Source: Desulfosoma sp. (GTDB lineage Bacteria > Desulfobacterota > Syntrophobacteria > Syntrophobacterales > DSM-9756). Taken from it: 64,000 bases of DNA. The stretch is from the NCBI GenBank assembly GCA_037481835.1, contig JBBFKW010000008.1:96001-160000 (forward strand), in the 5' to 3' direction. Position 1 is the stretch's first letter, and each line of letters opens with the position of its first letter. The notes beneath the pieces are model-generated. The model had not been told where the DNA came from, searched no databases, and saw only the letters and a program-made list of their open reading frames with translations. The translations under genes and the position numbers were made by a program. Positions 9,879 to 47,046 of this stretch are shown here, one piece after another.

Positions 9879-10880
9879 ATGCATTTGCAAAAACGTGTGC
9901 TTGTCACAGGGGGGGCCGGCTTTCTCGGATCCCATCTGTGCGAAAAGCTTCTCGAAAAGGGCCACGATGTTTTGTGCGTGGACAATTTTTATACGGGCAC
10001 CAAGGGAAACATCGTCCACCTGCTGACCAATCCGTTCTTTGAAGTCCATCGGCACGACATCACGTTTCCTCTTTTCGTGGAAGTGGACGAAATTTACAAC
10101 ATGGCCTGCCCGGCTTCTCCCGTGCATTATCAGAACGACCCCGTGCAGACCACCAAGGTATGCGTCCACGGGTCCATCAACATGCTGGGGCTGGCCAAGA
10201 GGCTTAAAGCCCGCATTCTGCAGGCATCCACGTCGGAAGTGTACGGGGATCCCACGGTGCATCCCCAGACGGAAGACTATCGAGGCAACGTCAATCCCAT
10301 CGGGCCCCGGTCGTGCTACGACGAAGGCAAGCGGTGTGCCGAAACCCTGTTTTTCGACTACCGGCGCCAGCACAAGCTTTCCATCAAGGTGGCCCGAATT
10401 TTCAATACCTACGGGCCGCGCATGCATCCCAACGACGGACGGGTGGTGAGCAATTTCATCGTCCAGGCTCTTCTCAACAAGCCCTTGACGGTTTTCGGCG
10501 ACGGCTCCCAAACCCGATCCTTCTGCTACGTGGACGACATGGTGGAAGGCCTCATCCGGCTCATGGAATCCCCAGAAGACGTGACCGGGCCGATCAATTT
10601 GGGCAACCCCGACGAATTCACCATCATGGAACTGGCCGAGCTGGTCTTGGAATTGACCGGCTCCCGATCCCAGATCCGTTATGAACCACTGCCCAAGGAC
10701 GACCCCGTGCGGCGCCGCCCGGATATCACGCGAGCCCGGCAGATTCTCGGATGGGCGCCCACGGTGCCTTTGCGGGAAGGACTCCGAAAAACCATCGACT
10801 ATTTTGACGATTTCCTGCGCCAACGCGGGCTGACCGACGACGGGTCCCCGGCCGAACACAGGAATTCCGCCGGATTTTAA
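9879..10880 (+). CDS. UDP-glucuronate decarboxylase (UDP-xylose synthase)
   Basis: [53 protein letters not shown]. Confidence 0.9.
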
Positions 10881-42644: not shown

Positions 42645-44357
42645 GTGCTCAGTGAACTCGTGGTGCACAATTTCGCCATCATTTCACGCCTTCACGTGGC
42701 CTTTGATTCCGGTTTCACCGTGATCACGGGGGAAACCGGAGCCGGCAAGTCCATCCTTGTCGGGGCCGTCAACCTGCTGCTGGGGGGGCGGGCGTCCCAG
42801 GACATGATCCGAACCGGAGCCGACGAAGCCACCGTGGAGGCCCTCTTTACGTTCGACAATCCGAAGATCTTGGCCGAACGGCTTCAGGGTCTGGATGTGG
42901 AACCTTCCGCCGAACTCGTTATCAAGCGCACTGTCAGCCGCTCCGGGCGCAACCGCGTCTTCATCAACGGCCGACTCGCCACGCTGTCCCAACTGCAAGC
43001 CCTAGCCGTGGGGCTCATTTCCATTTCCGGACAGCACGAACATCAGGTGCTTTTAAACCCCGACATCCATCTGGACCTTCTGGACCAGTATGGCGGCCTG
43101 GAAGACGATGCGGCCCGCGTGGCCGAGGCCTACGCGCAATGGACTCAAAAGCTGGACGCCCTCAAGCGCCTCCAGCGAATGAAAGAGCAACGCCGGGAAC
43201 AGCTGGACTTTATGCGGTTTCAACTCCACGAATTGGAAGCCGCGCGGCTGGTTCCCAACGAAGACGAGGAGCTCCAAAATGAGCGGCGGATCCTCCAGCA
43301 TGCGGCGACCCTTCATGAGGCCGCAGAAAACGCCCATCGGCTGATCTACCGCGAACACGGCTCCGTCATCGAAAAACTGGATGAAGCCGCCAGAAATTTG
43401 GAAACCATCGCCAGGATCGACCCCAGCCAAGCGCCCGCTTTGGACCATGTGGAACAGGCCAGGATCCACGTCCAGGAACTCAGTTATATGCTCCAGCAGT
43501 ACCTTGGAGGCATTCGTTTCGACCCGCAACGTCTTGCGGAAGTGGAAGACCGACTGGCCCAGCTCGCCCGTTTGGCCAAAAAGTACGGCCCCACCGTGGC
43601 GGACATGATTCGCACCCGGGACGAACTTCGCACGGCCTTGAGCGGGGATGCGGACGCGGATTGGGAAGAATCGGTCCTTCAAAAGGAAGCAGCCCGGGCC
43701 GAAGAACATCTCAGGGCCTTAGCCCAGGAACTTTCACGGCGGAGGCGTTCCGCGGCGGCACGGCTCCGCGGCGACGTGGAACAGGTCCTGGCCCGGCTGG
43801 ATCTTCCCAAGGCGCGTTTCGATGTGCGGTTTTCTGGGGACGCGGACGTATCGGCGGAAGATTTTGCCGCCCAGATCACGGCCAAAGGGCTGGACCGCGT
43901 GGAATTCCTCCTTTCGGCCAACCCAGGGGAGGCGCTCAAACCCCTGGCCAAAGTGGCCTCCGGCGGAGAACTGTCGCGCATCCTCCTCGCCCTCAAAACG
44001 CTGCTCAGCGGCCAAGGGGAAGCGGAAACTCTCATCTTCGACGAAGTGGATGCGGGAATCGGAGGCCGCACGGCGGAGCTCGTCGGCCGCCAGCTGCAGG
44101 ACCTCGCTCGGCGCTTTCAGGTGATCTGCATCACCCACCTGCCACAGATCGCCTGCTACGGTTCCCATCACTACCGTGTGGCCAAGGAAAGCGATCAGGA
44201 CACGACCCGAACCACCATCTCGCGGCTCGACCCTCAAGAGCGCATCACGGAATTGGCCCGCATGTTGGGCGGGGTCACCATCACTGAAAAAACCCTCGCC
44301 CACGCCCGCGAATGGCTCGAACGCGCCCACCCTTCCGATCATGAGCCCTCACCATAG
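42645..44357 (+). CDS. recN: DNA repair protein RecN
   Basis: TGETGAGKS, GQHEHQ, ASGGELSR, FDEVDAGIGG, ITHLPQIA. Confidence 0.96.
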   Translation: MLSELVVHNFAIISRLHVAFDSGFTVITGETGAGKSILVGAVNLLLGGRASQDMIRTGADEATVEALFTFDNPKILAERLQGLDVEPSAELVIKRTVSRSGRNRVFINGRLATLSQLQALAVGLISISGQHEHQVLLNPDIHLDLLDQYGGLEDDAARVAEAYAQWTQKLDALKRLQRMKEQRREQLDFMRFQLHELEAARLVPNEDEELQNERRILQHAATLHEAAENAHRLIYREHGSVIEKLDEAARNLETIARIDPSQAPALDHVEQARIHVQELSYMLQQYLGGIRFDPQRLAEVEDRLAQLARLAKKYGPTVADMIRTRDELRTALSGDADADWEESVLQKEAARAEEHLRALAQELSRRRRSAAARLRGDVEQVLARLDLPKARFDVRFSGDADVSAEDFAAQITAKGLDRVEFLLSANPGEALKPLAKVASGGELSRILLALKTLLSGQGEAETLIFDEVDAGIGGRTAELVGRQLQDLARRFQVICITHLPQIACYGSHHYRVAKESDQDTTRTTISRLDPQERITELARMLGGVTITEKTLAHAREWLERAHPSDHEPSP

Positions 44358-44388
44358 TCGCCCCCCACAAATTTACCCCGTTTTCAAA

Positions 44389-44463
44389 TTCCAATCCTAC
44401 GTATCCCAATCTTACATATCCCAATCTTGCTTATCCCAATTTTGCTTCTTCTGATCTTACGTA
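44389..44463 (+). repeat. About five degenerate 15-bp tandem units (TCCCAATCTTRCNTA-like)
   Basis: ttccaatcctacgta tcccaatcttacata tcccaatcttgctta tcccaattttgcttc ttctgatcttacgta. Confidence 0.7.
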
Positions 44464-44572
44464 GGTTGGGGTGAGCGAAGCGAACCCCAACATTGCCATC
44501 TCGTCAGAAACGCTCGGTCCGTTGAGGAACTGTCAAGTTGGGGTGAGCGAAGCGAACCCCAACATTGCCATC
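44461..44572 (+). repeat. REP-derived 36-bp direct repeat pair separated by a unique 36-bp spacer
   Basis: GTTGGGGTGAGCGAAGCGAACCCCAACATTGCCATC at 44465-44500 and 44537-44572. Confidence 0.9.
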
Positions 44573-44800
44573 CCCCACCCACCGTGCTCCAACAAACATG
44601 ATCCACCCAACCCCAACCCCTCATCCACCTCAATCCAACACCCCCTGATCCACCCACTCCAACATCCCTCATCGACCCTGCTCCAACAAACCCCATCCAC
44701 CCAACCCCAACCCCTAGTGCACCTCAATCCAAACCCCCTGATCCACCCACTCCAACATCCCCCATCCACTCTGCTCCAACAAACCCCATCCAATCCCAAG
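44570..44800 (+). repeat. C/A-rich satellite of 21-24-bp units with a 93-94-bp higher-order period
   Basis: Units such as accccctgatccacccactccaac, nearly all ending CCAAC, arranged ABCD-ABCD-AB. Confidence 0.85.
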
Positions 44801-44802
44801 CT

Positions 44803-45330
44803 TCAACGCTCCCCAAAACTTCCCCCCAACTCGGGCACTCCCCCCCAATCCGCCGAAAGCCATCCTCGCTTCACAAAGGCGTGGAAGGTGGAAAAAGGCC
44901 AATCCACAACCCTCGCCACATATCCGTGCTTCACAGGGTTGTAGTGAATATAGGTGCAGTGGATTTCCAGATCTCGCTCATCGCGGATCATGTGTTCCCA
45001 ATACCTGCGCTGCCAGAGGCCCCGTTCGCCTTTTTTCCGGCGGCTTTCAGAAATGGGTTCCGTGTTTGGAATACCTCTGGAAAAACCGGCCTTGATCATG
45101 GCCCATCGCGTAGCGTAATCGGCATCGCCCTGCGGCATGTGCCATATGGCGTGCATATGATCCGGAAGCACCACCCAAGCGATGATTTCGAAAGGATGGG
45201 CACGGCGGACGCGCCGGACCACGGTCCGAAGAAGTTCGATGTTTTTCGTGAGAAGATCGCTGGTTCTGTCTACAAGATTCAGCGTAAAGAAATAAGCGCC
45301 TCCAGGAACAAAGGCTCGACGATAGCGCAT
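44803..45330 (-). mobile_element. REP-associated tyrosine transposase (RAYT, TnpA-REP, HUH Y1)
   Basis: MRYRRAFVPGGAYFFT, VLPDHMH (HUH), WQRRYWEH, YIHYNPVKHG; flanked by GTAG REPs. Confidence 0.93.
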
Positions 45331-45372
45331 GGCGCTCTTCCTTTTTGGAGGAAGGCAAGGGTGGGGATGGGG

Positions 45373-46281
45373 AAAAACCGCGCCCACGCACCGACACCCC
45401 GGCACGGCGCCGCACCATGAAAGTCCAAGGCTTCCGCGCCTTCCCATCGATCGTCATGGAAGCATGCACGGATTTTCGTAGAAACTCGCACGGGTTTTCT
45501 ATCCCACGGCTTTCGTGCAATCAGTTTAACGTTGGCGGGTGGTCATGGGAAAGTGGGCGGCAAGGAGAAAAGGGTCGGGGATGGGGAAATGTTGGGGTTC
45601 GCTGCGCTCACCCCAACCTACATGTTTACATGTCGCCTCGGCGAGGCGGCGAACACGGAATGTCCGGCCGTCCCACACTCTGGGCCCGCCTTTCATCCTT
45701 CGGCCCGAAATTCTGCAAAAAACCCGTAGGTTGGGGTGAGCGAAGCGAACCCCAACAAAAACCGCGCCCACGCACCGACACCCCGGGAAGGCGCCGCACC
45801 ATGAAAGTCCAAGGCTTCCGCGCCTTCCCATCGATCGTCATGGAAGCATGCACGGATTTTCGTAGAAACTCGCACGGGTTTTCTATCCCACGGCTTTCGT
45901 GCAATCAGTTTAACGTTGGCGGGTGGTCATGGGAAAGTGGGCGGCAAGGAGAAAAGGGTCGGGGATGGGGAAATGTTGGGGTTCGCTGCGCTCACCCCAA
46001 CCTACATGTTTACATGTCGCCTCGGCGAAGCGGCGAACACGGAATGTCCGGCCTTCCCACACTCTGGGCCCGCCTTTCATCCTCCCTCCCAAAATTTTGC
46101 AAAAAACCCGTAGGTTGGGGTGAGCGAAGCGAACCCCAACCAAAACCGCGCCCACGCACCGACACCCCGGCACGGCGCCGCACCATGAAAGTCCAAGGCT
46201 TCCGCGCCTTCCCATCGATCGTCATGGAAGCACGCACGGATTTTCATAGAAACACGCACGGGTTTTCCATCCCACGGCTTT
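45373..46281. repeat. 384-bp tandem amplification (about 2.4 copies), each full unit ending in a REPIN
   Basis: Units start at 45373, 45757 and 46141; REPs at 45591-45621, 45726-45756, 45975-46005 and 46110-46140. Confidence 0.92.
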
Positions 46282-46293
46282 TGGGCGATCCGG

Positions 46294-47046
46294 TTAACGC
46301 GGCGAATCCTCCACAAGGCGGGGGACAAGGTCACCGGCCTTGCCGAGGAGGCTCACGTTAAAGGCTCGGCTGTAAGGGGTGGGTTCCAGGTTGATTTCCA
46401 CGACGAAGGCGCCGTGTTCCTGGGCATAGAGGCCCATGGAGGCGGCCGGCTGCACAACACCGGATGTGCCGACAACCACCATGACGTCGCATTGCTCCAG
46501 TTTGCCGTAGGCCGTTTGGAGGACGGCGGGGTCCAAGGATTCGCCGAACCACACCACGTCGGGCCGCACCATGGCACCGCAGGCTTCACAATGGGGCGGA
46601 TAGGGAATGGGCACGCGGCGGTCTTCCTTCTTCAGACCGCATCGGCTGCATCGAACCCACCAGATGTTGCCGTGGAGCTCCACGACGGCGAGGGAACCGG
46701 CGGCCTGGTGGAGCCCGTCGATGTTCTGGGTGAGCAGGACGAAATCGGGCGTTCGGTTTTCCAGGGTCACCAGAGCCTTGTGGGCTGGGTTGGGTTTCAC
46801 CGACGCCAGGACTTCGCGCCGATAGTTGTAGAATTCCCAAACCAACTGGGGATTTCGGGAAAAGGCTTCGGGTGTGGCCAGATCCGTCGCTCGGTATTCC
46901 CGCCACAGGCCTCCCGCCCCGCGAAAGGTGGGCACGCCCGATTCCGCCGAAATGCCGGCCCCGGTGAGCACCACGATCCGGCGGGCCTGCCGGATTTTTT
47001 CCCGAACCCGTGCGATGTCCTTCGCCACCTGATCCGGTCGACTCAC
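46294..47046 (-). CDS. cobB: NAD-dependent protein deacylase (sirtuin)
   Basis: TGAGISAESGVPTFRG, TQNIDGLHQ, ELHG, CxxC...CxxC, RPDVVWFGE, VGTSG; GTG start overlapping the upstream stop. Confidence 0.92.
   Translation of the reverse strand: MSRPDQVAKDIARVREKIRQARRIVVLTGAGISAESGVPTFRGAGGLWREYRATDLATPEAFSRNPQLVWEFYNYRREVLASVKPNPAHKALVTLENRTPDFVLLTQNIDGLHQAAGSLAVVELHGNIWWVRCSRCGLKKEDRRVPIPYPPHCEACGAMVRPDVVWFGESLDPAVLQTAYGKLEQCDVMVVVGTSGVVQPAASMGLYAQEHGAFVVEINLEPTPYSRAFNVSLLGKAGDLVPRLVEDSPR

Follow-up and report, generated by a model that had tools for sequence, protein, structure and literature searches.

Spacer integration away from CRISPR arrays has been thoroughly documented in vitro and in Escherichia coli cells that over-express the integrase, and clean natural examples of it are, to our knowledge, few. 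In E. coli, off-target integration by the type I-E Cas1-Cas2 complex has been reported to generate neo-CRISPR arrays (Nivala, Shipman and Church 2018, Nat Microbiol; cited in 10.1101/148544, PMC6698737 and PMC7054753), and, as told by a citing paper, the same study gave circumstantial evidence for such events in two other species. The E. coli Cas1-Cas2 complex has also been described as integrating off-target into a plasmid without CRISPR, beside an inverted repeat prone to form cruciforms, with Cas1 showing high affinity for cruciforms and the reaction needing supercoiling (PMC5389526). Likewise, the type III-A Cas1-Cas2 of Thermotoga profunda is reported to integrate promiscuously unless HU is present (PMC13769266), and the off-target sites described for Pyrococcus furiosus have features common to repeats (PMC6698737).

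Here we analyze a repeat-insert-repeat unit that occupies a REP palindrome in the genome of a Desulfosoma-like bacterium, a sulfate reducer of hot springs, and that lies in what we call the window, i.e. the whole stretch of 64,000 nt of contig C8 that was analyzed. Judged from its sequence, this unit is one with the geometry and the genomic setting that characterize off-target Cas1-Cas2 scars, and we consider it probable that it is the scar of a full-site off-target integration of a spacer by the host Cas1-Cas2 into the REP palindrome, that is, the product of a "neo-CRISPR" reaction. With the loci of the 2018 E. coli study, as these are described, it shares a spacer-length insert, a repeat-length duplication of a non-CRISPR target, a position away from arrays and the presence of integrase genes in the genome. 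However, those loci were made under over-expression and have 28-nt repeats, whereas the unit considered here is natural and fixed, and its host has III-A (with a primase-polymerase) and I-B systems with 36- and 37-nt repeats, either of which may have made it. Furthermore, the targets in this genome are REP-type palindromes, one of the inserts is derived from a host gene and no multi-spacer growth is seen. As regards the in vitro systems, a shared preference for palindromic or repeat-like sites, combined with a low fidelity of the III-A enzymes, would explain hits at REPs. In contrast, the events reported for those systems are mostly half-site or plasmid events, whereas the ones described below are completed and repaired in the chromosome and have no motif in common with the real repeats.

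The repeat-insert-repeat unit and its surroundings

A repeat search in the window recovered two 100% identical copies of a 36-nt direct repeat, whose starts are 72 nt apart and which therefore leave exactly 36 nt between them (Table 1). The bases that flank the two copies differ on each side (G versus A on the 5' side and T versus C on the 3' side), and the 36/36 boundaries are thus unambiguous. The intervening segment occurs once in the window with up to 3 mismatches and once in the 3.63-Mb draft genome (38 contigs) with up to 8. These results confirm the exact 36-bp repeat around a single-copy 36-bp segment that an earlier note on this DNA had pointed out, and rule out that the segment is an ordinary recurring REP flank. 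The insert is only 19% identical to the sequence that follows copy 2, as against 36/36 identity of the copies with each other. The final 4 nt of copy 2 run into a downstream 94-nt tandem repeat, of which they are a continuing part; hence copy 2 and its right flank are old contiguous DNA, and GTAG with copy 1 is likewise old contiguous DNA on the left side. The simplest history suggested by this arrangement is that one REP received 36 nt and that 36 nt of the target came to be duplicated around the insert. The single-stranded fold of the unit is governed by its two REP hairpins (z = -2.15).

Table 1. Location of the unit, of its neighbors, of the related units and of the resident CRISPR-Cas loci; plain numbers are positions in the window, and a prefix names another contig or a contig-wide coordinate
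Feature	Location	Strand	Remarks
recN (SMC_N, AAA_23), convergent neighbor upstream	42645..44357	+	domain matches
Strain-variable RAYT/REP island, 1898 nt, holds the unit	44333..46230	.	metagenome comparison
GTAG tetranucleotide of the resident REP	44461..44464	+	outside the duplicated segment
Copy 1 of the 36-nt duplication	44465..44500	+	27-nt REP hairpin core (44465-44491) plus 9-nt private flank ATTGCCATC
36-nt spacer-like insert	44501..44536	+	unique in genome, 52.8% GC
Copy 2 of the 36-nt duplication	44537..44572	+	TCAA on the 5' side instead of GTAG
RAYT (REP-associated tyrosine transposase)	44803..45447	-	NF047646, 203 bits vs cut-off 80
Inverted partner REP, far side of the RAYT gene	45591..45617	-	core match
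Unit of this window	C8:140465		duplication 36 nt, exact; insert 36 nt
C15 unit	C15:104463 (104463-104569)		duplication 36 nt, 34/36 identical; insert 35 nt; starts inside REP stem, second REP truncated
C3 unit	C3:143424 (143424-143533)		duplication 36-38 nt, 36/38 identical; insert 34-36 nt; ends in REP loop, first REP truncated
C4 unit	C4:98401 (98401-98508)		duplication 37 nt, exact; insert 34 nt; second palindrome family
III-A locus	C20, continuing on C14		Cas10/Csm1, Csm3, Csm4, Csm5, Cas6, Cas1, Cas2, CRISPR-associated primase-polymerase (CAPP)
I-B locus	C12		Cas3, Cas5b, Cas7, Cas4, Cas6, Cas1, Cas2

The REP hairpin core contained in each copy has 10 matches in the window, as against 0 in 100 shuffles, and 193 matches genome-wide with up to 3 mismatches. 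GTAG stands directly 5' of 159 of the 192 cores that have a readable flank, and 178 of these 192 are preceded by a tetranucleotide at most one mismatch away from it. Just nine of the 192 have at least 3 mismatches to GTAG, and copy 2 is among them. Moreover, the 9-nt flank that the two copies have in common does not recur at any of the other REPs of the genome. As the duplicated 36 nt omit GTAG and include this private flank, the duplication behaves as a target-site duplication rather than as a REP unit. Ordinary direct REP pairs at comparable spacing look different: in 18 of 20 such pairs in the source genome (G000) both a GTAG-like tag and the entire stem are present at the second copy, the two exceptions being the present unit and the one on contig C15, and the pairs are normal in 11/11 cases in a congener (G003) and in the single case (1/1) in G012, with a stricter pattern giving the same picture. 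REPINs are inverted REP pairs. The unit does share with REP, BIME and REPIN elements and their RAYTs the nature of its target, which is a genuine GTAG-tagged REP that flanks the only full RAYT copy in the genome, 230 nt away; an inverted REP lies across this gene, and the REP hit by the insertion is therefore one of the flanking pair of the RAYT. It differs from these elements in that its pair is direct, its second copy is without GTAG, the 9 nt of private flank are duplicated along with the hairpin and the filler is a unique 36-nt sequence.

Several tandem repeats surround the unit. Upstream of it, a 15-nt repeat (3.8 copies) occupies 44391-44447; downstream, the 94-nt repeat mentioned above is C-rich and extends over 44569-44792 (2.4 copies); and a 384-nt repeat at 45373-46299 (2.4 copies, 96% matches) includes pairs of REPs as well as copies of the 5' end (26-28 codons) of the RAYT gene. 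The tract upstream of the unit is built of the 15-nt repeats, and its description in the earlier note as AT-rich holds, its GC content being 41% as against 60% for the genome. The further description as leader-like found no support and was rejected: the genuine CRISPR leaders of this host have 51-63% GC and no by-eye similarity to the tract, which is uncovered in other strains that carry the unit (44361-44411 in the metagenome runs X3 and X4).

The similarity of RecN (83% with that of an uncultured Desulfosoma MAG, 70% with that of Desulfacinum infernum) points to a Desulfosoma-like organism, and the region downstream of recN was compared across a collection with one genome per species and across metagenome contigs. 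In G003, which belongs to the same genus (recN 3' end 84% identical), a single GTAG and hairpin follow recN and give way to C-rich DNA, and in two further genomes (G001 and G002) no REP is found after recN. Among the metagenome contigs, L023 aligns with the window at 99.4% identity as far as position 44332 and, resuming at 46231, at 96.8%, with 159 unrelated nt replacing the whole island and with different last codons of recN. In L024 (85% identity by protein) recN directly abuts a Sir2-family gene. In L022 (88% identity) the island is reduced to a single REP made up of GTAG, the hairpin and ATTTCCATT, the latter being 7/9 identical to the private flank of the unit, followed by unrelated DNA, a RAYT fragment and an inverted REP. 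In the comparison with relatives, a single REP without insert was thus found at the orthologous site in L022 and G003, whereas the closest strain, L023, is without the island altogether and no empty allele of the same strain was seen.

A 96-nt Logan contig covers 44471-44566, i.e. the insert and 30 nt of each copy, with no mismatch, and is present in run X1, a possible source of the genome, as well as in X3 and X4 of another study; X5 has no coverage. Since the insert and both of its junctions are found in independent assemblies, the structure is not an assembly artefact and is common to populations of different studies. The runs that hold the locus are labelled as hot-spring and sediment metagenomes. 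The Logan contigs of the four runs (k=31) are unable to tell an empty from a filled allele, and no second insert was seen in them, contigs being a poor tool for that.

Resident CRISPR-Cas systems and the origin of the insert

A profile search of the genome gave two matches each for Cas1 and Cas2, all above curated cut-offs and free of internal stops, on contigs C20 and C12. Thus the host does possess cas1 and cas2, in the form of two intact modules, and the absence of cas genes from the window, likewise stated in the earlier note, stands as well. The C20 module is part of a III-A locus that includes a primase-polymerase (NF040561, 557 bits). The III-A repeat is exactly 36 nt long, with 149 identical copies on C20, and the 158 readable spacers of this system are 33-40 nt long with a mode of 36 (60/158) and a GC content of 53.9%. 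The I-B array on C12 has a 37-nt repeat and 47 spacers of 33-38 nt, with the same mode (20/47) and a GC content of 50.9%. Consequently, the duplication in the unit has the length of the III-A repeat, the insert has that of the modal spacer of both arrays, as anticipated for a spacer-like event in this host, and the GC content of the insert (52.8%) is comparable to that of the genuine spacers.

The unit differs from these canonical arrays in having just two "repeats", of unrelated sequence, no host-type leader and no adjacent cas genes. Its pseudo-repeat is identical to the resident CRISPR repeats at 9-10 of 36 positions, which is chance level, and mimicry of the repeat was rejected on this ground; an ATTG near the 3' end of the pseudo-repeat is one position off register relative to ATTGAGAC of the III-A repeat. 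Processing of the unit by Cas6 is accordingly thought unlikely.

For the insert itself, no exact match was found in IMG/VR, in JGI metagenome contigs or in GTDB genome contigs, and among 401 genomes of the phylum the source genome alone has it with up to 3 mismatches. Searches with blastn against phages and plasmids returned only hits of 25-28 nt with E values of at least 0.1, which is chance level. The phage and plasmid comparison that the earlier note had proposed for the 36-mer thus gave no source, and with no protospacer found for the insert no PAM is readable either. Most spacers have no known donor, and this negative outcome therefore weighs neither way. Among the 205 canonical spacers of the host, none has a full-length match in the host genome, and 7 give partial hits of 17-21 nt; this fits selection against self-targeting in arrays that can be processed.

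Four units of one geometry

The whole genome was scanned with exact seeds of at least 14 nt and X-drop extension for repeats of at least 24 nt with a period of 30-160 nt, leaving out CRISPR arrays, N gaps and units whose insert resembles the adjoining sequence. The 48 repeat-insert-repeat units that survived are mostly whole-REP pairs with periods of 57-66 nt; four of the 48, including the one in the window, form a cluster apart, with duplications of 36-38 nt and inserts of 34-36 nt (Table 1). The search of other REPs for the same structure, which the earlier note had proposed, thus gave further units of this geometry, and one of these has an insert derived from a host gene. This 35-nt insert, in the C15 unit, matches the coding sequence of recR (C5:182789-182823; Toprim domain) at 34/35 positions; the match breaks off precisely at the two insert ends, and the junctions show no microhomology. 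Its bounds are set both by the duplication and by the donor, and the boundaries are thus fixed twice, independently. REP/RAYT biology does not readily account for a piece of a host gene that has spacer size and was pasted in with a 36-nt stagger.

Neither the C3 nor the C4 insert recurs in the genome or has an exact match in IMG/VR. The C4 unit lies in a second palindrome family, CCCTCTCCCCC..GGGGGAGAGGG, which has 59 copies in the genome, and its duplication cuts the consensus of that family at both ends; as no part of this unit lies outside a repeat family, its case is weaker than that of the other three. Three copies of this second family are found just upstream of the III-A cas1 gene (C20:12746-12953).

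All four units are situated at palindromic repeats, in four different registers relative to their palindromes, and neither a shared motif nor a sequence-coded target rule was found among them. In view of the differing registers and the lack of a shared motif, DNA structure or neutrality appears a better guess for what governs the choice of target than sequence mimicry. Palindromic repeats, when widened by one duplication length, amount to ~16 kb or 0.45% of the genome, and the probability of finding four of four units there by chance is ~1e-6 as a rough estimate, calculated for units found post hoc and for a uniform distribution of neutral insertions over an assumed 10-13% of non-coding DNA, a share that had to be assumed because, in DNA as GC-rich as this, long open frames take up 97% of the sequence. 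In the C8 and C15 units, as in the III-A repeat, the duplication begins with a G on each strand, and the C3 unit has this G at its right end; the left end of the C3 unit is ambiguous and the C4 unit has C and T. This pattern is suggestive, albeit recognized post hoc. In the congener G003, which has the same REP family and a Cas1, the REP-pair pattern search nevertheless yielded no such unit.

Among the other units with periods of 70-75 nt, those at C18:40839, C6, C20:12746, C4:122417 and C4:109306 were rejected as scars, being tandem or whole-element pairs with homologous inserts. Exact 55-nt duplications around 100-N scaffold gaps were noticed at C1:139348, C4:12638, C7:96159 and C9:147731; these look like assembly overlaps.

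Proposed course of events and competing explanations

In the reading that we favor, the starting state would have been a single resident REP, composed of GTAG, the hairpin and the private flank and running on into CCCCACCC. The two 3' ends of a spacer-sized duplex would each have attacked one strand of this target, at positions 36 nt from each other, and the 36 nt between the cuts would have been copied when the gaps were repaired, leaving the duplication on either side of the insert. This would follow the established Cas1-Cas2 mechanism, by which a CRISPR array has its first repeat duplicated. With its 36 nt, the stagger is as long as the III-A repeat and thereby points to the III-A-linked module (Cas1, Cas2 and CAPP). 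The I-B module, with its 37-nt repeat, is a possible alternative actor, and the 37-nt C4 unit could be its work. Three further palindromic repeats of the genome appear to have undergone the same reaction, in one case with a fragment of the host gene recR as the insert. The off-target acquisition of a spacer into a REP, which the earlier note had offered as one of two options, is thus supported by the cas1-cas2 modules of the host, the 36/36 geometry, the non-recurring insert, the relatives with a single REP and the sister units.

The sums of duplication and insert are 72, 71, 72 and 71 nt in the four units, and this regularity, along with the location of all four at palindromes and the copying of the genome's own DNA (recR) into one of them, might also be expected of an undescribed insertion-plus-duplication process that adds ~72 nt at hairpin-forming DNA independently of Cas1-Cas2. 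We regard such a process as unlikely. In this genome the partition of the sum is nearly constant (36-38 / 34-36) and coincides with the resident repeat and spacer lengths, so that a sum of 71-72 is predicted by CRISPR geometry itself. The other units with a 70-75-nt period also speak against it, since they are whole-element pairs or tandem duplications with homologous inserts. Finally, we know of no enzyme other than the Cas1-type integrases that makes a 36-nt stagger.

It is highly unlikely, in our estimate, that the second REP copy was made by the neighboring RAYT, or by recombination or conversion between REPs, with 36 nt becoming trapped between the copies. HUH transposases of the Y1 class (IS200/IS605 type) integrate on the 3' side of a given tetranucleotide, do not duplicate the target and cut at positions that are constant with respect to a hairpin. 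The location of the unit, close to the only RAYT gene and within one of its flanking REPs, accords with an involvement of this enzyme, as does the left edge of the duplication, which coincides with the boundary between GTAG and hairpin, and direct REP pairs are common in this genome. However, the unit has a 36-nt duplication and its insert is without another genomic copy, neither of which such an insertion would give, and the four units were cut in four registers, half-REPs included. Nor does this explanation account for a duplication that takes in 9 nt of non-REP flank and leaves out GTAG, for a unit in the other palindrome family, which this RAYT is not expected to serve, or for a recR-derived insert that contains no REP. 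The second option of the earlier note, the capture of single-stranded DNA by the neighboring RAYT, fails on the same varying cut registers relative to the hairpin and on the unit in the different repeat family.

We consider it least credible that slippage at the hairpin produced a tandem duplication which then diverged or was partly lost, or else that two independent REP insertions share a flank by chance, since, although the genome does contain true tandem arrays of REPs, with periods of 48-70 nt (e.g. C10:84189-84410 and C18:40841-40937), only 36 nt of the 72-nt period are repeated here, perfectly preserved copies enclose an insert unlike the sequence after copy 2 where an A-B-A-B order would be expected, and two independent REPs would share 8-9 private flank bases with an estimated probability of ~1e-5 and would in addition require the loss of GTAG in copy 2.

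Returning to off-target integration by Cas1-Cas2, the identity of the pseudo-repeats to the real repeats is at chance level, and the unit is therefore probably inert, a neutral scar rather than a working mini-array; growth beyond one insert is absent in all the data seen. A broader idea, which we hold to be doubtful, is that the CRISPR integrase of this bacterium naturally prefers REP-type palindromes for its off-target insertions, as four of four scars would suggest, and that hits at these sites yield repeat-spacer-repeat seeds, REP-like elements thereby furnishing raw material for new repeat families or orphan mini-arrays.

If off-target integration is indeed the origin of these units, a single genome holds four completed events that can be measured against the resident arrays as a ruler, with one insert clearly derived from a host gene. 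The off-target reaction would then occur and become fixed in the wild, and in this genome it would land on palindromic repeats. It would also follow that self-derived fragments can survive when they land outside an array that can be processed. The wider interest may lie in the targeting of REPs and in the link to an adaptation module of the III-A type that bears a primase-polymerase. The system is open to experiment, as the III-A Cas1-Cas2 with its primase-polymerase can be combined with REP targets in studies of integrase fidelity and of the birth of arrays. For annotators there is a caution in that a REP doublet whose spacing resembles that of a CRISPR array may represent an integration scar.

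Some minor observations concern the resident loci. The III-A adaptation module, with Cas2, Cas1 and the CRISPR-associated primase-polymerase, extends over C20:11000-16300. The I-B array is interrupted by an insertion of ~2.8 kb that cuts a repeat (C12:27992-30780). In the III-A array, two spacers (C20:10669-10702 and 10812-10848) share 27 nt and thus stem from overlapping protospacers of one target; they are among the last four read before an N gap, at the leader-proximal end of the array, and their overlap on one target suggests recent acquisition.
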